A stretch of DNA of 64,000 nucleotides, from the IMG/VR virus record IMGVR_UViG_3300045911_000155, positions 16,561 to 80,560 of that record, one strand, 5' to 3'. Positions 320 to 46,099 of this stretch are shown one piece after another. This stretch comes from a virus. Each line of letters starts with the position of its first letter. Position 1 is the stretch's first letter. The position numbers and the translations under genes are program-made. The notes below the pieces were generated by a model. The model was not told the origin of the DNA. It made no database searches and worked only from the letters and a program-made list of their open reading frames with translations.

Positions 320-673
320 CTATTTGGTTTCGACCGGCACATCGGCCAGCAAGTCCAAGTACTTTTGCGGCACCATCGCCGGGTTGAGTACGATGGTCCG
401 GTTCGCAAACATCAACGTGCCTTTGCGCGCCGTCAGCGTGATCGGATGCTTCTTCGCCCATTCCGGGTCGTCATCATAGAAGCCGTCCCAATCGTCGTCC
501 ACGCCTTGCACCGTGATCCGGGCTTCGTCTTTGCGATAGGCGTTTTGTTTGATGCCGACGCGAACTACCTTGCCGATCCGAAGAGCGGCGCACCGGCCTA
601 ATGCGTGACCGTAGACGATGATCGCGCCCGGCTCAATCGGCTGTCCCATCTTGTCTTTGAGTGGTAGTTCCAT
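320..673 (-). CDS. Hypothetical phage protein
   Basis: 117 aa ORF with coding-like composition, downstream of the tRNA operon on the same strand. Confidence 0.7.
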   Translation of the reverse strand: MELPLKDKMGQPIEPGAIIVYGHALGRCAALRIGKVVRVGIKQNAYRKDEARITVQGVDDDWDGFYDDDPEWAKKHPITLTARKGTLMFANRTIVLNPAMVPQKYLDLLADVPVETK

Positions 674-693
674 TGATCCATTCTACGACGAAC

Positions 694-883
694 TGGTGGG
701 ATAGCCGGGACTTGAACCCGGACAATGTTTTAGCATTGCGACTTCAGGATACATTGGATCGGTTTGGCCGATCCCTACCCGCTTCCCTAGCGACCCTTAC
801 TCAGAGCCGGTTGGTGCATCTGGAACCCTACATCGCGCCCACGCTCCGTTTTTCGTGCGCTCTGTCCGTTGAGCTACTATCCC
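694..883 (-). ncRNA. 190-nt tRNA-like RNA with a large structured insert
   Basis: Acceptor GGGATAG/CTATCCC-A-CCA, D arm GCTC/GAGC, T arm CCGGG-TTCAAGT-CCCGG; no canonical anticodon loop and an insert of about 115 nt. Confidence 0.75.
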
Positions 884-891
884 AAATTCTT

Positions 892-980
892 TGGTGGCGG
901 AAAGGGGACTCGAACCCCTACGGTATTGCTACCACATGACTCTCATTCATGCGCGGCTACCAAGATTACGCCATTCCGCC
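892..980 (-). tRNA. tRNA-Leu(GAG)
   Basis: GGCGGAA/TTCCGCC acceptor, CATGA-ATGAGAG-TCATG anticodon arm, long variable arm, encoded CCA. Confidence 0.9.
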
Positions 981-987
981 AAAGTGT

Positions 988-1074
988 TGGTCGCGGGAGT
1001 GGGACTCGAACCCACACGACATTTCTGCCACATGCTTCTGAGACATGCGTGGCTACCAATTACACCATCCCGCG
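988..1074 (-). tRNA. tRNA-Leu(CAG)
   Basis: CATGT-CTCAGAA-GCATG anticodon arm, type II variable arm, CCA. Confidence 0.92.
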
Positions 1075-1167
1075 AAAAAAGACCAGAACTTTCATCATCC
1101 ACCGTCAAGCGGTTTGCCCGCCGCAATTGTTTTGGGCCTTGGAATTAAACCAAGCGCTCTGATCTTT

Positions 1168-1252
1168 TGGTGGCCGAAGAGAGACTTGAACTCTCACGCC
1201 CGAAGGCACCGGGTTTTGAATCCGGGGCGTCTGCCAATTCCGCCATTCGGCC
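1168..1252 (-). tRNA. tRNA-Leu(CAA)
   Basis: CCGGA-TTCAAAA-CCCGG anticodon arm, type II variable arm, CCA. Confidence 0.9.
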
Positions 1253-1352
1253 ATTTGTGGAAGCCTTTCACTTCACTTGACCATTCTGGATCGCCAGTAT
1301 GATTACCCCGCCGATGAACGTTTCACTAGTACCGTGCATCGGAACATCGATT

Positions 1353-1440
1353 TGGTAGCGGGAGTGGGACTCGAACCCACACGACATTTCTGCCACTAAT
1401 TTTTGAGACTAGCGCGGCTACCGGATTACGCCATCCCGCC
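1353..1440 (-). tRNA. tRNA-Leu(CAA), second copy
   Basis: CTAGT-CTCAAAA-ATTAG anticodon arm; variable and T arms nearly identical to the Leu(CAG) gene; CCA. Confidence 0.9.
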
Positions 1441-1444
1441 ATGT

Positions 1445-1660
1445 TCAACGATTTATCACACCCCATGAAGCTCCGCAAGGTGAAGTGGGGAAGCCGCACC
1501 CTTCGAGTTGATCCCGGACCCATTCAGCTTTCTGTTCGTTCGTCATTTTGCTGAAGTGATCTGAGTATTCTTTGCTGGTGACCAGCATCGTGATCTGAAA
1601 ACAGATATCAACCAACTTCTGTTCCCGTCCTTCAGGTGTCAGTTCCGTTCGTGCGGCCAT
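1445..1660 (-). CDS. Small hypothetical protein embedded in the tRNA operon
   Basis: MAARTELTPEGREQKLVDICFQIT... (71 aa) fills the gap between two tRNA-Leu genes. Confidence 0.7.
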   Translation of the reverse strand: MAARTELTPEGREQKLVDICFQITMLVTSKEYSDHFSKMTNEQKAEWVRDQLEGCGFPTSPCGASWGVINR

Positions 1661-1674
1661 GACCCTATTGTAGT

Positions 1675-1758
1675 TGGTGGGCGCGAAGGGATTCGAACCC
1701 TTACGCCGAAAGGCACTAGTTCCTAAGACTAGCGTGTCTGCCGTTCCACCACGCGCCC
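1675..1758 (-). tRNA. tRNA-Leu(TAG)
   Basis: CTAGT-CTTAGGA-ACTAG anticodon arm, type II, CCA. Confidence 0.92.
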
Positions 1759-1759
1759 G

Positions 1760-1837
1760 TGGTCGGATCTGATGGACGCTACCCATCTCCCATGTGTCCC
1801 CGATTTGGACACCGCGACCGCTTGTCGCTAAGACCCG
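1760..1837 (-). ncRNA. Pro-like tRNA mimic with non-canonical T loop and enlarged anticodon loop
   Basis: CGGGTCT/AGATCCG-A-CCA acceptor; GCGAC/GTCGC D stem; GTGTC-CAAATCGGG-GACAC; GATGG-GTAGCGT-CCATC in place of a TTC T loop. Confidence 0.7.
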
Positions 1838-1841
1838 TTAA

Positions 1842-1919
1842 AACCGTAAGCAAATTGAGTAGGCCACGGAATGTTTTTCAACCATAGAAAGATAACCATG
1901 ACCAGTTCGGCTTACAGTT
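1842..1919 (-). ncRNA. Y RNA-like (stem-bulge) RNA 1
   Basis: CTGTAAGC-C-GAA / TTT-GCTTACGG bulged terminal stem (GNCGAA motif); upper stem GGTCATGG/CCGTGGCC; loop starts TTATC. Confidence 0.65.
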
Positions 1920-1997
1920 TGGTCTAGGTGGCGGGAATCGAACCCGCTTGAATGTCCTGTTCCCGAAACAGGCGGCTGACCTTTAGCCCACACCTAG
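1920..1997 (-). tRNA. tRNA-Pro(CGG)
   Basis: CCTGT-TTCGGGA-ACAGG anticodon arm, C1-G72, A73, CCA. Confidence 0.88.
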
Positions 1998-2020
1998 ATG
2001 AATCGTATCACAGCAAATAG

Positions 2021-2109
2021 TGGCAACGGATAGCGGGATTTGAACCCGCAGTGGCTTTTTAGGCCGACTGTTTTTGGACAGTTGTGTTTACCATTTCACG
2101 ATAACCGTT
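2021..2109 (-). tRNA. Atypical type II tRNA-like gene (8-bp acceptor, G73, abnormal anticodon loop)
   Basis: AACGGTTA/TATCCGTT-G-CCA, GCGGG-TTCAAAT-CCCGC T arm, ACTG-TCCAAAAA-CAGT, variable arm GGC/GCC. Confidence 0.65.
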
Positions 2110-2132
2110 ATCCGTCCGGCTGTGACACGATT

Positions 2133-2209
2133 TGGTCGGGAAGGCGGGAATCGAACCCGCTCGATGTCCTGTCCCCCAGACAGGCGGCTCACCTTTAGCC
2201 CACTTCCCG
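2133..2209 (-). tRNA. tRNA-Pro(GGG)
   Basis: CCTGT-CTGGGGG-ACAGG anticodon arm, CCA. Confidence 0.9.
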
Positions 2210-2298
2210 AATGCGCGGACAAACATCGTCCGCAAAACTCGTTTCTCTCATTCAGTTGTCAAATACCAGTTGCTCTCATCGTCTGCACGATGTCGGCT

Positions 2299-2374
2299 TG
2301 GTCGGGGACACGGGACTCGAACCCGCATCTTCCTGTACCCAAAACAGGTGGCTTACCAATTAGCCAAATCCCCG
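2299..2374 (-). tRNA. tRNA-Pro(TGG)
   Basis: CCTGT-TTTGGGT-ACAGG anticodon arm, CCA. Confidence 0.9.
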
Positions 2375-2380
2375 AAAGAT

Positions 2381-2457
2381 TGGTCGGGCATGCAGGATTT
2401 GAACCTGCGACTTCACCGTCCCGAACGGTGCGCTCTACCAAGCTGAGCCAATGCCCG
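2381..2457 (-). tRNA. tRNA-Pro(CGG), second copy
   Basis: CACCG-TTCGGGA-CGGTG anticodon arm, canonical D and T arms, CCA. Confidence 0.93.
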
Positions 2458-2515
2458 AAAAATCGGTCACACTACGGGATTACGCAAAAATGAAAAGGGG
2501 AGTGGAAACGTTACG

Positions 2516-2623
2516 TTACCGCAATCGCGGCGAACGTAACCCGCTAAGGGAAGCGGGGAGAGGCAACGATGGTAGGAGTATTGCGCCGGTGGTGGTCGTC
2601 GTGATGTCGATGATGTTGCGCAT
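2516..2623 (-). CDS. Putative 35-aa leader peptide of the tRNA operon
   Basis: MRNIIDITTTTTGAILLPSLPLPASLSGLRSPRLR*; AAGG upstream; stop lies inside hairpin 2510-2540; sits between the promoter and the first tRNA. Confidence 0.55.
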   Translation of the reverse strand: MRNIIDITTTTTGAILLPSLPLPASLSGLRSPRLR

Positions 2624-2661
2624 GGTCGTTGCCTTTGTGGGTGGTTGTCCGCCCACATTCC

Positions 2662-2692
2662 TATTTATACAGACGTTCAGGCCCGATGTCAA
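2662..2692 (-). promoter_or_regulatory. Dual sigma70 / T4-late promoter of the tRNA operon
   Basis: TTGACA-17nt-TATAAA, with the -10 extending to the exact T4 late consensus TATAAATA; T-tract UP element upstream. Confidence 0.8.
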
Positions 2693-2769
2693 GGTTTCGC
2701 AAAAAAAATTTCGAACCGATAAATACTGGTGTTCGAATGGAGATCAGTAACCACGAACGGAGGAATCGA

Positions 2770-2940
2770 TTGAAGAAACTTCTTTCTGTTGCTGTCCTTG
2801 CTATGGCCTTGGCCGCTAGTGTTTCCCCGGTTGCCGCATTTGGACCGCTTCCGCCACCCCCGGTGGAAGATGTTCATTGTGAGCCGAAGGAAATCTGTTT
2901 CCTTGGCATCTGTGTCATTTGGGGCTGTGCTTCGTACTAG
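2770..2940 (+). CDS. Small secreted Cys-rich peptide
   Basis: GGAGGA RBS, TTG start, signal peptide KKLLSVAVLAMALAASVSPVAA, mature part with PPPP and 4 Cys; ATAAATA upstream. Confidence 0.7.
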   Translation: MKKLLSVAVLAMALAASVSPVAAFGPLPPPPVEDVHCEPKEICFLGICVIWGCASY

Positions 2941-2965
2941 TCCTTCCATTCAACAATAACCAGTC

Positions 2966-2997
2966 GGGCCGGTACCTCACCGGCCCTTCTTCTTTTC
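2966..2997 (+). terminator. Intrinsic terminator
   Basis: GGGCCGGT-ACCTC-ACCGGCCC followed by TTCTTCTTTT. Confidence 0.7.
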
Positions 2998-3017
2998 TGG
3001 TATATAATCACATCACC

Positions 3018-3317
3018 ATGCTCTTCACTGTCACGCACCGACAAGATGTCTTGCACTACCTGAGCCAGGAATTGAATCTGGCATCGATGCTTCTCCGGGT
3101 TGCCAGCAACACACCGAAAAGCCCGATGAATCGTCAGTTGGCGATTCGTTTGCAGACTGTTGGCATGACGATCCGCCTCATCAAAGATGTGCCCGGCGAT
3201 GTCACGCTGGATATGATGCTGAATCGTGTTCCGGTTTCACTTCGGGATGAATTGCAAGGGATCGTCGGTGTTCATCCGGTTGTTGCAACTCCCGTAGCAA
3301 TTCAATCATTCGTATAG
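3018..3317 (+). CDS. Hypothetical protein
   Basis: ATG just downstream of TATAAT; 99 aa. Confidence 0.55.
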   Translation: MLFTVTHRQDVLHYLSQELNLASMLLRVASNTPKSPMNRQLAIRLQTVGMTIRLIKDVPGDVTLDMMLNRVPVSLRDELQGIVGVHPVVATPVAIQSFV

Positions 3318-3625: not shown

Positions 3626-4105
3626 ATGTCTTGGGTTGAATCAGAATACGCAAATTTGATGTCGTTGACGGAGTACAACAGTCAGCGGCGCGTGGTCATC
3701 ATGCGCGGAATCTCCGGGTGTGGAAAAAGCACGTACACGCGCACCCATTTCCCCGGTGCGAAAGTGTACAGCGCCGATCACTACTTCGAGCGAAATGGCA
3801 CGTACCAGTTCGACCCGACGAAACTCAAGAACGCCCATGAAGACTGCTTTCGGAAATTCCAACAAGGATTGATGAAGGGCGAACCGCTGATCGTCATTGA
3901 CAACACCAATACCCGGAAGTGGGAAATGCAGCGCTACTATGACGCGGCGGTCAAGGCTGGCTACGATGTCAGCGTCGTCCGGCTGGTCTGCGACCCGGCG
4001 AAGGCGGCGGCGCGCAACGTGCATCAGGTTCCGGCGGACAAGGTGGAACAGATGGCGTCGCGGTTTGAACCGTGGCCCGGTGAACAATTGGTCCGTACCA
4101 CTTGA
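3626..4105 (+). CDS. AAA_33 / N4BP2-like P-loop (polynucleotide) kinase
   Basis: MRGISGCGKST Walker A, SADHYF, IVIDNTN, RNVH motifs; TAAATA late promoter at 3601; start may be 3659. Confidence 0.85.
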   Translation: MSWVESEYANLMSLTEYNSQRRVVIMRGISGCGKSTYTRTHFPGAKVYSADHYFERNGTYQFDPTKLKNAHEDCFRKFQQGLMKGEPLIVIDNTNTRKWEMQRYYDAAVKAGYDVSVVRLVCDPAKAAARNVHQVPADKVEQMASRFEPWPGEQLVRTT

Positions 4106-24915: not shown

Positions 24916-25293
24916 ATGCCAAGGAAGAAAACACTGCCCCCGACCACCAGTCAGTTGAACGCTGTGGTCACGGCGCTAGCAAAAGAGAATGCGCGTTTGA
25001 AAGCGGAACTCGACGAAGTTCAGCAAGACCTGAGCGACACCGTTGACCGGATGCTTGCAAATGAGCGAAATGAGAAGAAGACTCAAACGGCGGCTCAAAA
25101 GGAACTCGAAGAACTCCATCGGGAGATCGACGGGAAGAACCCGGCCAGCAAGGACCCGCAATGGTACATCACCCGTTTGCGGATCATGAAGTCGCAGTTA
25201 GAGAAGATGCGCACGCAAGTAGCGCGTCTGGAAAGGATCTGTACCGAAAACAACATCAACATTGACGACGACGGAGAAGAACAAGTCGCATGA
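24916..25293 (+). CDS. Coiled-coil protein
   Basis: GAGGGG RBS; ATGA overlap with ligase. Confidence 0.75.
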   Translation: MPRKKTLPPTTSQLNAVVTALAKENARLKAELDEVQQDLSDTVDRMLANERNEKKTQTAAQKELEELHREIDGKNPASKDPQWYITRLRIMKSQLEKMRTQVARLERICTENNINIDDDGEEQVA

Positions 25294-26726
25294 ACCCAAT
25301 CAAGAGAATCTTCGAGTACTTCGAGCGCATCCACGCGGCGAAGGGCCGGAACCTCAAAGTAGCGATCATTGAAGAACTGATCGCTGAAACCGAACTCACG
25401 CAAGTCCTAACGGAAATTCTTCAGCACACCTACGACCCCTACATCACTTTCGGCGTCACGGCAGACAAACCATCCGCCGCAACATCTTTGATCGAATCGG
25501 TTTCGGAAGATGCGTTGCTTGACCACTGGAACGAAACCAAGGATCTTCTCTCGAAGCTGGCAAATCGCACCTTGACCGGGAATGCCGCCCAAGCCGCTGT
25601 CGAAGAGATCATCAGGATGACCCCGGCTCCCTACCGCAAATGGTGGGTCGGAATCATCAACCGGAATCTGCGGATTTCCGGCGTCGCTGCAAGCACATGG
25701 GCCAAATACATCCCCGGCTTGACGACTAACGTCAACCCGCAACTGTGCGACAAGTTCGACAACCGCACCATCGCGGAACCCATGTACGTCGAACCAAAAT
25801 ACGACGGCATCCGTGCTGTGTTCGTTCCTCAAGAGAACGGGACGTTCATCGCATTCAGTCGCGAAGGAAAGCGGCTGTCCAACACCGAACGCCTGTGTGA
25901 ACTCATCGCCAAAGCTGACAACAGCAAAGTCGTTATCGACGGTGAAGTGTTCTATAAGGACTTCCACACCACACAGAGCATCGTCAGCACTCAGTCCGAA
26001 CACCCGCTGGCCGGGAACCTTCAATTGTTCGCGTTCGACGCCATCCCGCTGGATGACTGGAATGCGCAATCGTCTTCCCTGCCCCTGTTCCGGCGCAAGG
26101 ACGTGCTCCGGGCTGTCGTGGACGATATCAATGGATACGTCCGCCCGCCGAAGCCCACACCCGAAGAAGTGAAAGCCAAGCTGGAACAGCTTATCAAACA
26201 GCGCGGCATTCATGGTGTGCAAATCCCGCCGCCGATGGAAGAACCGAAAGACGATCCGTCTTGGCCGGTTCAGTACGTCCCGGCAAAACTGATCGGATCG
26301 AACGCGGCGGCGGAAACGTTCTATCGCGAATGCGTTGCGGCGGGTTTCGAAGGTATCATCCTGAAGGAATACGCGGCTCACTACGAATACAAACGGTCGA
26401 AGACATGGATGAAGATGAAGCCGTCCCATGACACCGACATCACCATTGTCGATGCCATCGAAGGGAATCATCGTCTGGTCGGGTCTTTGGGAGCGCTGAT
26501 CGTGGAAGGCTCCGTGACCTTCAACAATCGTCCCTATAAGGTTCGTAGTGAAGTCGGTAGCGGGTTCACTGACCCGGAGCGGCAAAAACTGTGGGATCTG
26601 CATAAGGCCGGTGAACTGGTGGGCCGGATTGTAGAAGTCCGCTACCAAGAGCCGGACATCGACGGGGCACTTCGCTTCCCTGTCTTCGTCAGGTTGCGGG
26701 ACGACCGGGCCGAAGAAGCTGCGTAG
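25290..26726 (+). CDS. ATP-dependent DNA ligase (gp30-like)
   Basis: EPKYDGIR, DGE, EGIILK, KRSKTWMKMK, VGSGFT, LRFP motifs. Confidence 0.95.
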   Translation: MNPIKRIFEYFERIHAAKGRNLKVAIIEELIAETELTQVLTEILQHTYDPYITFGVTADKPSAATSLIESVSEDALLDHWNETKDLLSKLANRTLTGNAAQAAVEEIIRMTPAPYRKWWVGIINRNLRISGVAASTWAKYIPGLTTNVNPQLCDKFDNRTIAEPMYVEPKYDGIRAVFVPQENGTFIAFSREGKRLSNTERLCELIAKADNSKVVIDGEVFYKDFHTTQSIVSTQSEHPLAGNLQLFAFDAIPLDDWNAQSSSLPLFRRKDVLRAVVDDINGYVRPPKPTPEEVKAKLEQLIKQRGIHGVQIPPPMEEPKDDPSWPVQYVPAKLIGSNAAAETFYRECVAAGFEGIILKEYAAHYEYKRSKTWMKMKPSHDTDITIVDAIEGNHRLVGSLGALIVEGSVTFNNRPYKVRSEVGSGFTDPERQKLWDLHKAGELVGRIVEVRYQEPDIDGALRFPVFVRLRDDRAEEAA

Positions 26727-31717: not shown

Positions 31718-31743
31718 CATAGATGTCCCGTGGTATACTCAAG

Positions 31744-33165
31744 ATGATGTCATTTCGACAATTCCTATTTGAAAGCGCGAAGGCCGAAGAAGCCTTGAAC
31801 GCGGTACGCAATGCGCTCATCGGTTCGAAGTATGAGCAAGACGTGTACCTTGTAGGCGGGGCCGTTCGCGATATGCAAATGGGCTTGCCGGTCAAGGACT
31901 TAGACCTTGTGGTGGACAACCACGGTCTTGAGGGTGGCATCGAATGTGCGACTTTCTTGGCGAAGGCGCTTGGCGTTTTCCGCCCGGATTCAAACCCGGT
32001 GATCTTCCCGCGATTCGGCACTGCGAAGCTGACGTTGAAGAGCGGGTTCGACGTGGAGTTCGTCGCGCCGCGCAAAGAGAAGTACGACGCCAACAGCCGG
32101 AAGCCGGTTGTGTCTGCCGGTACGCTCGAAGACGATGCGTTCCGCCGCGACTTCACGATCAATTCCCTGTTCATGCGCCTGTCGAATTCCGAACTCCGGG
32201 ATCTGACCGGGCGCGGTCTGGCCGATTTGAAGCGCAAGACCATCCAAACGACCAGCGACGCCACCTACATCTTCAGCGAAGATCCGTTGCGCATGTTGCG
32301 CGCCGTCCGGTTCGCAATCAAGTACGACTTCGAATTGCCGCTGGCACTCATCAAGGCAATCAAGGTGAATGCCCGGCGGCTTCAGACGATCAGCAAGGAA
32401 CGCATTCAGGACGAACTGAACAAGATCCTTGTGCTGAAGACGCCATCGCGCGCGATCCGCCTGTTCAAGATTACCGGGTTGCTGAAAGAGTTCATGCCGG
32501 AACTGCAAGCGCTGTCCGGCGTCACTCAGAACGCCTATCACAAGCACGACGCTTTCGACCACACGCTTGATGTGCTGGACAATGCGCCGCCGGATCTGAC
32601 TGTCCGGCTTGCCGCGCTGTTCCACGACATCGGCAAGGCCGCGACCCGCACCGACGACGGTGGAAAGGTTCGTTTCCTTGGTCACGCCAATGTCGGTGCC
32701 GAAATCGCTGTCGAAGTCATGAAGCGGTTGAAGTACTCGAACGACGACACGGAGAAGATCCGCAAGATCGTGTTTCATCACATGGACATGAAGTTCGCTG
32801 GTGACGATCTGGCGACGCTGAAGGACAAGAGCCTTCGGAAGCTCATCTTCCGTGTTGCCGACAAACTGGACCCGCTGTTGAGCCTGATGCATGCCGACAA
32901 CATCAGCCATGCGGAGCACGCCAATATGCCGAATCAGATCAACCTCATCCGGCAACGCATCAAGGATTGGGACATCGAATCCATCCTGAACACCACCAGT
33001 GTTCTGGACGGCAACGAAATCGCCGCCTTGGGCGCGAAGGGTCCGCTGATCGGCAAGATCAAAGGTCGCATTCTGGACAAGGTTCTGGAGAATCCCTCTT
33101 TCTCGAAGAAGGACGCCACTCTGATGGCACAGAGCATGATCCGTGATGCCGCCGGAAAGAAGTAA
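31744..33165 (+). CDS. cca: Class II CCA-adding tRNA nucleotidyltransferase with HD domain
   Basis: VGGAVRD..DLD, YDANSRKP loop, RRDFTIN, EDPLRMLR, FHDIGK. Confidence 0.92.
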   Translation: MMSFRQFLFESAKAEEALNAVRNALIGSKYEQDVYLVGGAVRDMQMGLPVKDLDLVVDNHGLEGGIECATFLAKALGVFRPDSNPVIFPRFGTAKLTLKSGFDVEFVAPRKEKYDANSRKPVVSAGTLEDDAFRRDFTINSLFMRLSNSELRDLTGRGLADLKRKTIQTTSDATYIFSEDPLRMLRAVRFAIKYDFELPLALIKAIKVNARRLQTISKERIQDELNKILVLKTPSRAIRLFKITGLLKEFMPELQALSGVTQNAYHKHDAFDHTLDVLDNAPPDLTVRLAALFHDIGKAATRTDDGGKVRFLGHANVGAEIAVEVMKRLKYSNDDTEKIRKIVFHHMDMKFAGDDLATLKDKSLRKLIFRVADKLDPLLSLMHADNISHAEHANMPNQINLIRQRIKDWDIESILNTTSVLDGNEIAALGAKGPLIGKIKGRILDKVLENPSFSKKDATLMAQSMIRDAAGKK

Positions 33166-44647: not shown

Positions 44648-46099
44648 TTAGCGCTGGCTCTTGTTCAACGTTTTCACGTAGAGCGCGATGTCTTCCGAAA
44701 GAGGCTCAGCATCAGCGGCCTTCGGCGCGGTCTTCTTCTGATCCTGTTCGGTCAGAGTGCCCTTCGCCTTTTCCTTCGGGAAGTACGATTCCTTGAGCGT
44801 GGTCAGCGCGCTGGCAAACTGAGTGCTGTTCTGGAAGGCGATACCTTCCGCCAACTTGCTCAGACGATCAGCTTGCGTAGCGGTCAAACCGGTGGAAGCC
44901 TTGCGGACCATTTCCGTGCGGCGGTAGCGGGTCAAGGATTCACGCAACTTCATGTTCTCCTTGGCGGATTCGTTGAGACGGCCTTCGAGCTTGGACAACT
45001 TCTTGCCCATGACCTTGAGAACATCGACCTTCGATTGCGGAACTTCGATGTAGTGTTCAACGAACAGCTTCTTCAACCCGGACAGGAAGTCTTCGGCCAA
45101 CTCAGCGCGGATACCGGCTTCAACGGCCAAACGATTTTCCTTCAACCACTGCGAAGAAACGTAGGTCAGGTAGCGGTCAACCTGTTCCGACAACTTCGCT
45201 TCATGTGCGGCAATGCGCGCGTCAGACTTCTTCTTCAACAGCGCATACGCTTCCTTCAACTTCTTCGACGCTTCTTCAGCAACACGCTTGCGGGTCGCAG
45301 CGGCGCGGGTCTTGACAGCGGCTTCGAACACAACGGACGCCTTCTTGCGGAAGTCTTCCGGCAAGCTAGCTTCGCCGAAGATCGCCTTCTCATCGTCGGT
45401 CACTTCGTCGTCGTCGCCTTCGGTGACTTGCAGCTTCGGTTCCGGCGGCTCCGGTTCGGTGATGCCGATTTCGCCCGGCTGAACGTCTTCCTTCACATCA
45501 GGATCGCCGTCGCCGTCCTTGTCCAGCTTCTTCTTCAGGAAGTCAGGCATGTCGTCCTTGTCTTCCTTCACCTTCTTGCCCTTCACCGGCTTCTTGGATT
45601 CCTTGACCTTCTTCTTGGTCTTGGATTCCGCGACAACTTCGTCGTCGTCCTTGTCTTCGTCTTCGGCCACAACGTCGTCTTCGTCGTTGTCGTCATCTTC
45701 CGACAGTTCGCCTTCCGGCTTGTCGGGATCGCCTTCGGCTTCCTTCAAACGAGCGATCATTTCGGAGAACGTCTTGTCAAGGTCGTCGTCTTCGTCGGCA
45801 TCTTCCGATACAACGTCGTCTTCTTCCTTGTCGTCGTCTTCCGTCACGATTTCATCGTCTTCGTCAGCATCGGCGTCTTCGACAACTTCGTCGTCGCTCA
45901 TGTCGTCAACGTCGAAATCATCTTCTGCGACCATCTTGTCAGCGTCATCTTCTTCCGCTTCCATCGGCCACTTCTTGTCGATTGCGTTTGCTTGCGGAAC
46001 GTCGGCTTGTTTCACGTCCGCTGAGAAGTCAGCGGGGTAGTTACCAGCCGCCGTAGCTTCCTTGAGCATTTCGAGAATTTTGCTTTCAAAAGCACCCAT
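44648..46099 (-). CDS. gp22: Prohead core scaffold (gp22) with long acidic N-terminus
   Basis: EDFRKKASVVFEAAV, VDRYLTYV..WLKEN, LFVEHYIEVP, LKESYF; position. Confidence 0.9.
   Translation of the reverse strand: MGAFESKILEMLKEATAAGNYPADFSADVKQADVPQANAIDKKWPMEAEEDDADKMVAEDDFDVDDMSDDEVVEDADADEDDEIVTEDDDKEEDDVVSEDADEDDDLDKTFSEMIARLKEAEGDPDKPEGELSEDDDNDEDDVVAEDEDKDDDEVVAESKTKKKVKESKKPVKGKKVKEDKDDMPDFLKKKLDKDGDGDPDVKEDVQPGEIGITEPEPPEPKLQVTEGDDDEVTDDEKAIFGEASLPEDFRKKASVVFEAAVKTRAAATRKRVAEEASKKLKEAYALLKKKSDARIAAHEAKLSEQVDRYLTYVSSQWLKENRLAVEAGIRAELAEDFLSGLKKLFVEHYIEVPQSKVDVLKVMGKKLSKLEGRLNESAKENMKLRESLTRYRRTEMVRKASTGLTATQADRLSKLAEGIAFQNSTQFASALTTLKESYFPKEKAKGTLTEQDQKKTAPKAADAEPLSEDIALYVKTLNKSQR

Follow-up and report, generated by a model that had tools for sequence, protein, structure and literature searches.

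The known leader peptides that carry cognate codons, such as thrL, ilvL and hisL, are all homeostatic. Phage tRNA genes are usually treated as constitutive codon-usage patches or as spares against the loss of host tRNAs, and to our knowledge their regulation is essentially undescribed. The locus described here, on the minus strand of a 64,000-nucleotide (nt) stretch of the viral record IMGVR_UViG_3300045911_000155 (the window, to which coordinates refer unless another record is named), consists of a promoter, a 35-codon open reading frame (ORF) and an array of tRNA genes whose canonical members are all for leucine or proline. It is considered probable, at roughly 0.6, that the ORF is translated and serves as a sensor in cis of the speed at which Leu, Pro and Ile codons are decoded, setting the expression of the tRNA operon downstream. 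If true, the phage would gauge decoding capacity per codon family and make only those tRNA sets that are in short supply, and leader-peptide attenuation would be extended from the supply of amino acids to that of tRNAs. Full-text literature searches turned up no account of leader peptides or attenuators ahead of tRNA genes, phage or cellular; PMC3082878 refers to a tRNA operon, but in a different connection.

The locus shares several properties with the enterobacterial attenuators thrL (Thr and Ile), ilvL of ilvGMEDA (Ile, Val and Leu), leuL, hisL and trpL, namely a short ORF between promoter and regulated genes, cognate codons for more than one amino acid, an unconstrained peptide sequence and hairpins that overlap the 3' end of the ORF. 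It differs in that tRNA genes rather than biosynthetic enzymes follow the leader, so that the quantity sensed would be the tRNA itself, and in that no intrinsic terminator or antiterminator pair was detected in the window lineage, the ribosome-binding site (RBS) is sequestered by the interior of the ORF and no Rfam leader family matches. Leader ORFs that act through Rho have been described in tnaC of the tna operon and in mgtL and mgtP of Salmonella mgtA and mgtCBR, where mgtP senses the decoding of Pro codons (PMC3641672, reviewed in PMC12360218). These appear to resemble the present locus in having a leader ORF followed by an unstructured C-rich tract without a terminator, and mgtP and mgtL likewise use Pro as sensing codons, whereas here tRNA genes lie downstream, the codon set is multivalent and a role of Rho is putative. 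T-box riboswitches likewise make translation-supply genes respond to the state of one particular tRNA, but read uncharged tRNA by RNA-RNA contact without a ribosome, while the signal in the phage leader is specific to one reading frame. The finding is best classed with leader-peptide attenuation, of which the window lineage is an atypical member because the terminator is absent. Its absence points to a second route, either Rho or RNA processing.

The window originates from an 80.5-kb virus contig (G000), marked by PHROG matches to large terminase, tail sheath, portal and scaffold as a putative large myovirus-like phage. A relative, the 224-kb IMG/VR contig G001 (96% complete), was reached through a neighbouring protein of 88% identity and yielded 41 tRNA matches in three clusters, designated A, B and C. 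Within G001 the composite promoter TTGACA-N14/15-TGTATAAATAG has exactly three copies, every one immediately ahead of a tRNA cluster, and G000 has a single copy; it is a strong, conserved promoter dedicated to tRNA clusters. Behind each of the G001 promoters lies an ORF running from ATG to TAA, of 35, 38 or 40 codons. The original prediction, made from the window alone, had asked whether similar leaders precede other tRNA clusters and whether their codons track the tRNA content. In G001 this was found for all three clusters, as follows.

Cluster A, tRNAs for Arg, Gly, Val, Asn, Lys, Cys, Met, His, Trp and Phe: leader match 30/37, background 0.43, binomial p 2e-6
Cluster B, tRNAs for Pro, Leu and Ile: leader match 15/34, background 0.18, binomial p 4e-4
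Cluster C, tRNAs for Ala (three), Cys, Asp (two), Thr (three) and Met: leader match 24/39 (11 Ala, 10 Thr, 2 Asp, 1 Met), background 0.245, binomial p 1e-6

All six mismatched pairings of leader and cluster gave p>0.6. When 1871 open G001 segments of 30-45 amino acids were taken as an empirical null, the leader fractions were reached by only two segments for B, one for A and none for C. Matches in frame 0 numbered 15, 31 and 25 for B, A and C respectively, with 5-16 in the other sense frames and 2-23 in the antisense frames. That one start-to-stop frame carries the signal argues for translation, and against a mere effect of composition or a codon-like pairing between RNAs. The use of synonymous codons was more even than expected from genome usage (combined P 0.014): in leader C the four Ala and the four Thr codons all occur, as do the four Gly and the four CGN codons in leader A. 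Relaxed ARAGORN settings added Gly(UCC) and Leu(UAA) to the G001 clusters, so that a phage tRNA exists for every Leu and Pro codon of the B leader and for ATA, but not for the ATC Ile codons. The three paralogous leader peptides are unrelated in sequence. The distal tRNAs of G001 (Arg-CCG, Arg-CCT, Leu-UAA and Ile-UAU) have no leader of their own and are located behind protein genes. With its three operons, G001 carries its own control for specificity, and the idea can accordingly be put to a direct test with reporters.

The corresponding locus of the window is laid out below, with the G001 locus that holds the B leader (L001) as comparison.

2692-2687, minus: -35 hexamer TTGACA, invariant in L001
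17 nt between the promoter elements, minus: promoter spacer, 9/17 bases different in L001
2669-2662, minus: -10 element TATAAATA with TG immediately 5', invariant in L001
2657-2636, minus: stem-loop at the 5' terminus of the transcript, from the minimum free energy fold and compensatory changes
2636-2632, minus: Shine-Dalgarno-like AAAGG upstream of the leader ATG
2633-2626, minus: 5' strand of the RBS-sequestering stem, from the RNA fold, within an element at 2625-2636
2623-2516, minus: leader ORF, ATG at 2623-2621, 35 sense codons, TAA at 2518-2516
2569-2562, minus: 3' strand of the RBS-sequestering stem, from the RNA fold, formed by codons 19-21 within the Leu/Pro-rich stretch
2556-2541, minus: hairpin C, CCGCU/AGCGG, codons 23-28 inside the ORF, 5/5 pairs kept in L001
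2540-2510, minus: hairpin D with the stop codon in its 3' arm, kept in L001
2509-2497, minus: post-stop C-rich motif GUUUCCACUCCCC, GUUUC...UCCCC, single-stranded
2496-2458, minus: variable U-rich spacer to the first tRNA, with a conserved CCCG at 2478-2475
2381-2457, minus: tRNA-Pro(CGG), first gene of the operon, by ARAGORN and Rfam (64.6 bits)
892-2374, minus: Pro(UGG), Pro(GGG), an odd tRNA, Pro(CGG), Leu(UAG), an embedded 71-codon ORF, Leu(CAA) twice, Leu(CAG) and Leu(GAG), by ARAGORN and Rfam

The predicted transcript would start about 7 nt past the -10 element and open with the stem-loop. The element TATAAATA itself is present once in G000 and four times in G001, where three of the four copies are the tRNA promoters. 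The arrangement that had been described from the letters of the window, a 35-codon ORF between a TTGACA-17-TATAAATA promoter and the first tRNA, was borne out (ORF 2623-2516, tRNA at 2457), and the order of promoter, short ORF and first tRNA is identical in L001 and in clusters A and C of G001. The 34 codons after the start include 7 Leu, 4 Pro and 4 Ile, one of the latter the rare ATA. The codon lists given beforehand were correct throughout (Leu CTC, CTA, TTG, CTC, CTT, TTA and TTG; Pro CCA, CCT, CCC and CCG), as was the presence of Arg CGC, CGT, CGA and CGG and of a run of five Thr codons. The stop codon had been placed inside a strong hairpin abutting a second one and followed by a C/U-rich tract; the RNA fold agrees, hairpin D (2540-2510) adjoining hairpin C (2556-2541). 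The Thr run, the four CGN Arg codons and the single use of each Pro codon, to which the original prediction had drawn attention, are gone from the relative's copy and are probably incidental.

Downstream of the leader, ARAGORN and Rfam detected 10 tRNA genes on the same strand between 2457 and 892: four for Pro, five for Leu and one with an abnormal anticodon loop of 6 nt. One further tRNA on the contig, Ile(UAU), lies just past the edge of the window. The order of the array is the same in L001. Leu(UAA) was seen only in G001, under the relaxed ARAGORN settings.

Conservation of the B leader was assessed at two distances. In L001 the ATG, 35 codons and TAA are retained with zero indels, while the flanks carry indels. 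Across the ORF 13 codons change their amino acid and three changes are silent, the total of Leu, Pro and Ile staying at 15/34 and the rare CTA, TTA and ATA codons being retained in both leaders. Close range was covered by near-identical strains represented by contigs from wastewater and freshwater runs (X12, X14 and X15). X12, which spans the whole region, has no change in the ORF and three in the 5' stem-loop; it also alters the promoter spacer, and its tRNA-proximal spacer has one substitution and a 3-nt deletion. The sole ORF change in X15 is synonymous (codon 21, CCT to CCA) and is accompanied by spacer deletions. A third strain has five substitutions and two indels in the spacer, with the covered end of the ORF unchanged. 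The tRNA-proximal spacer is rich in substitutions and indels across X12, X14, X15 and L001, the ORF being conserved more strongly than this flank, and CCCC at 2500-2497 is retained in the strain variants while adjacent bases change. The A leader behaves similarly: in three relatives 0/117 nt of the leader are changed, versus 18/215 behind the stop, including a covarying hairpin. The reading frame, predicted to be conserved in relatives, is so in G001 and in the strain variants. On sequence comparison the ORF is as conserved as the tRNAs among close relatives, yet free to change its amino acids at greater distance, a pattern expected if the composition of the leader, not its sequence, matters.

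This turnover bears on the proposal that the leader RNA or peptide acts in trans, as a small protein or as an attenuator-derived small RNA in the manner of rnTrpL/peTrpL of Sinorhizobium. The covarying 5' hairpin and stable 3' hairpins would make an excised leader long-lived, and trans-acting attenuator products have precedent (PMC6614838, PMC7298713). The peptide is not conserved, however, as 13/35 residues differ with no Pfam-like constraint, and the three paralogous peptides are unrelated; a role in trans is considered very improbable.

Several observations weigh against the B leader as a translated sensor. The most-used Leu codon, CTG, is missing from it though tRNA-Leu(CAG) is encoded, and C/U-rich sequence explains part of its richness in Leu and Pro, frames 1 and 2 still giving 5-9 matches. 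The 19 nucleotide differences between the two B ORFs fall 7:8:4 over the codon positions, without an excess at the third. When equally many changes are placed at random, the ORF survives in 23% of simulations and Leu+Pro+Ile does not drop below 15 in 12%; the conservation of the B leader taken alone is therefore weak evidence for a translated sensor. The conserved half of the ORF coincides with hairpins, and RNA structure could account for its conservation. The Shine-Dalgarno sequence is a weak match, and in the mature fold it is paired, as is the AUG. Lastly, none of the lineage's four leaders shows a conserved intrinsic terminator in the stretch from the ORF to the first tRNA.

Much of this would suit an untranslated, structured 5' leader of the pre-tRNA, composed of a protective hairpin, processing hairpins and a pyrimidine-rich spacer, with the Leu/Pro frame a by-product of C and U. 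Such a leader needs no third-position excess, its conserved ORF part would be that which overlaps stem B and hairpins C and D, a paired RBS and AUG would be of no consequence, other frames of the region are open too, and there is no terminator available to switch. It is nonetheless regarded as unlikely. The two paralogous leaders of G001 differ markedly in base composition, yet in each a single ATG-to-stop frame specifies the amino acids served by the tRNA cluster behind it (p 2e-6 and 1e-6; p>0.6 when mismatched), and the freedom of the ORF region from indels, while every flank has them, would be left unexplained.

The 203-nt leader folds at -63.3 kcal/mol (z = -4.5 relative to shuffled sequences). 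The 5' stem-loop is supported by covariation: in L001 a compensatory G-C to A-U change converts GUGGG/CCCAC to GUAGG/CCUAC and the loop has a 27-nt insertion, and in X12, independently, another G-C pair is replaced by A-U (2652 C>T together with 2641 G>A). Hairpin D is retained in L001 despite three substitutions and a 1-nt insertion, with its register shifted. The 8-bp RBS-sequestering stem is invariant in both B leaders, and the duplex between RBS and ORF interior was calculated at -18.9 kcal/mol in the window (P 0.016 versus shuffles) and -17.6 kcal/mol in L001, P being about 0.01 for the B leaders. In the B and A leaders the RBS is paired with codons of about 19-24. Relative to shuffles, sequestration was of borderline significance in A (P 0.04) and lacked significance in C (P 0.35), hence no rule for the whole lineage. 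The leaders of the lineage all place the stop codon within a GC-rich hairpin or immediately behind one. In all four leaders a motif of the UUUC..CCCC type follows the stop, unpaired or in a loop. A loose regular expression for this motif was non-specific, with four unrelated matches (one in G000, three in G001), and UCCCC as an anti-Shine-Dalgarno partner was rejected, since the fit seen by eye in the window and the C leader fails in the G001 B and A leaders. In one leader the motif agrees by eye with rrn boxA at 10 of 14 bases, a likeness on which no claim is based. Pairing of the freed RBS strand with the post-stop spacer upon stalling was likewise no better than shuffles (P 0.49-0.69). In the cluster A leader of G001 (L004 1640-1865), about 210 nt separate the ORF from the first tRNA; they include a hairpin whose changes among relatives are compensatory, as well as a tRNA-like element that is closed by a 7-bp stem and bears a T-arm-like GGUUCGACUCC loop.

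A terminator scan of the sense strand flagged nothing in the window, leader C or leader A. The offset of the U-tract from the hairpin, remarked on in the original prediction, holds: the tract (2496-2486) starts 13 nt past hairpin D and is replaced in G001. In the B leader of G001 a weak 5-bp hairpin with U7 lies directly before tRNA-Pro and has no counterpart in the window. Both features might suggest a classical attenuator of the trp type, with an intrinsic terminator made of hairpin D, or of a hairpin further downstream, and a U-rich tract, and exactly such a design is used by other phages (see below). The 13-nt gap, the lack of conservation of the U-tract in L001, the absence of the small hairpin from the window and the empty sense-strand scans make it highly improbable for this lineage. 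Folds in which the footprint of a ribosome was masked showed RBS-strand pairing to shift with ribosome position, with no conserved alternative that touches a terminator. Of the ribosome-mediated sensor as first proposed, the match of codons to cluster in three leaders and the conserved frame are found, and a conserved intrinsic terminator is not; the accompanying remark, by which Rho-type control is no less likely than classical attenuation, agrees with the data.

The composition of the leaders is relevant here. The B ORF has a C/G count of 25/8, and at most 29/8, per 60 nt, and the 58 nt behind the stop have one of 16/9; leaders A and C show only 16-23/12-18. C-richness is thus marked in B and modest in A and C. 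A translated ORF with the opposite, non-homeostatic logic might be envisaged, in which RNA polymerase needs leader translation to get beyond a Rho or pause site, in the manner of pyrBI-type coupling, or in which translation stabilises the transcript, and slow decoding lowers tRNA output. The C-rich, G-poor leader (25/8 per 60 nt in the B ORF, 16/9 in 58 nt after the stop) would suit this logic, and no antiterminator/terminator pair fixes the polarity in the window lineage. Positive feedback of this kind, however, needs no codons matched to the cluster; the related architecture in other phages is predicted from folding to give read-through upon stalling, and the known leader peptides with cognate codons are all homeostatic. 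The opposite logic thus seems quite unlikely.

For the preferred reading, a leader that senses decoding in cis and raises tRNA expression when decoding is slow, the following course of events may be proposed. A pioneer ribosome would load co-transcriptionally, before the RBS closes by pairing with codons 19-21. With cognate charged tRNAs plentiful, it would reach the stop in hairpin D and depart, exposing the C-rich leader, and the transcript would then be shortened, most likely by Rho or alternatively by RNA processing or decay. A ribosome lingering on Leu, Pro or Ile codons would keep the leader covered and open, and RNA polymerase would proceed into the tRNA genes. The polarity of this switch is borrowed by analogy from the tRNA leaders of other phages that have a terminator and antiterminator. 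In its fullest and more tentative form, which we put forward as a possibility only, the lineage would run three operon-resolved homeostats of tRNA supply, each gated by a leader ORF written in its own codons, and the gate would dispense with a terminator: a single pioneer ribosome admitted before the RBS closes would time the exposure of the C-rich leader to Rho or nuclease. Were this correct, leader-peptide control would gain a new output mechanism, and for the first time tRNA genes would be seen to be regulated through a direct reading of the decoding activity that they themselves provide. Leaders of this type could also find use as small, programmable sensors that report how available particular tRNAs are.

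The same promoter was found in other phages, on viral and metagenomic contigs, ahead of leaders that do have terminators. In L096, L116, L118/L231, the L094 group, L064 and L267 it is followed by an ORF of 23-38 codons, a canonical terminator and a tRNA array. The peptides are near-pangrams, with 19 different amino acids in the 24 residues of L118 (P 7.5e-5) and 16-19 in the others. A small hairpin encloses the stop codon, its 3' arm covarying with the choice of UAA or UGA, and a GC-rich terminator with a U-run follows; in L096, L118, L094 and L064 the 5' arm of the terminator can pair with the 3' end of the ORF. Four leaders were folded as nascent RNA up to the terminator loop with the ribosome footprint masked. 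With the ribosome in mid-ORF, a long antiterminator between the G-rich 3' end of the ORF and the C-rich 5' arm of the terminator formed in three of the four, and with the ribosome at the stop the terminator arm was free in all four. One leader showed trp-like 1:2 pairing without a ribosome. These folds suggest that the other phages follow the classical logic, in which slow decoding leads to read-through. L267, on a contig binned with a Robiginitomaculum metagenome-assembled genome, appears to be another classical example, its 23-codon leader being rich in Phe, Tyr, Lys, Met, Thr and Cys and followed by a canonical terminator and tRNAs for Met, Phe, Tyr, Lys, Lys and Cys.

The window lineage is like the other phages in its consensus promoter, short ORF that samples the amino acids of the tRNAs following it, stop codon in a hairpin and position at the head of a tRNA array, and unlike them in having neither a canonical terminator nor an antiterminator overlapping the ORF. 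It also splits its tRNAs into three operons sorted by amino acid, each with its own leader. Further members of the lineage were sought. Distant-mode comparison with the GenBank phage collection gave similarity at the level of the tRNAs only, with no relative of the leader; the exact hairpin D pattern had zero matches among viral contigs; and the patterns of the B leader and first tRNA matched G001 only. The B leader is absent from records G002-G005, which are fragments. Promoter-pattern scans of metagenomes and genome collections returned other lineages and unrelated repeats, and no further member of this one. Rfam searches at gathering cut-offs, and with cmscan at E up to 5 over 600-3100, yielded only tRNAs and sub-threshold noise, without a leader family or T-box; a match to anti-hemB at 2489-2559 was dismissed as noise (19.8 bits against a cut-off of 49.5).

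The promoter scans yielded two other kinds of locus. In L246, L247, L255-L258 and many metagenome loci (for example L140, L143 and L149) the same promoter drives a different conserved RNA, in which a tRNA-like 3' half ending in CCA comes first and a short tag-like frame ending in ..ALAA later. This RNA is probably a permuted two-piece transfer-messenger RNA (tmRNA). A tmRNA gene flagged as permuted by ARAGORN is present in G001 itself (44855-45219, minus strand). In about 50 soil metagenome contigs (L138-L242) a promoter-like string lies within a highly repeated element with an identical 50-nt end, present as inverted copies in L138 and L222 and bearing no relation to tRNAs. The end of this element is probably a terminal inverted repeat of a mobile element.

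Several features of the tRNA array and its surroundings were noted. The odd tRNA (2021-2109, minus) is 89 nt long with a long variable arm and the 6-nt anticodon loop, was reported by ARAGORN as 'tRNA-???' and is kept at the equivalent place in the relative (G001 209412-209500). Should this tRNA accept Ser, the four Ser codons in the leader would have a match as well. The 71-codon ORF (1445-1660, minus) between tRNA-Leu(UAG) and tRNA-Leu(CAA) has no PHROG match, and its spacing is kept in G001. Directly past tRNA-Leu(GAG), a tRNA-like gene at 694-883 (minus) has readable acceptor, D and T arms and about 130 nt in place of the anticodon and variable region; it was called by neither ARAGORN nor Rfam.

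Elsewhere in the window, a tRNA nucleotidyltransferase (CCA-adding enzyme; 31723-33165, plus), a polynucleotide-kinase-like ATPase adjoining the tRNA operon (3626-4105, plus) and an ATP-dependent DNA ligase (25290-26726, plus) are encoded, which together might form a possible tRNA-repair toolkit. The nucleotidyltransferase and the kinase-like ATPase are suggestive at most of the trigger first proposed, the cleavage of host tRNAs by defence nucleases. Divergent from the tRNA promoter lies a small gene (2768-2940, plus) with a strong GGAGGA RBS, a signal-peptide-like N-terminus and four Cys residues, followed by a canonical terminator of its own at 2966-2986.

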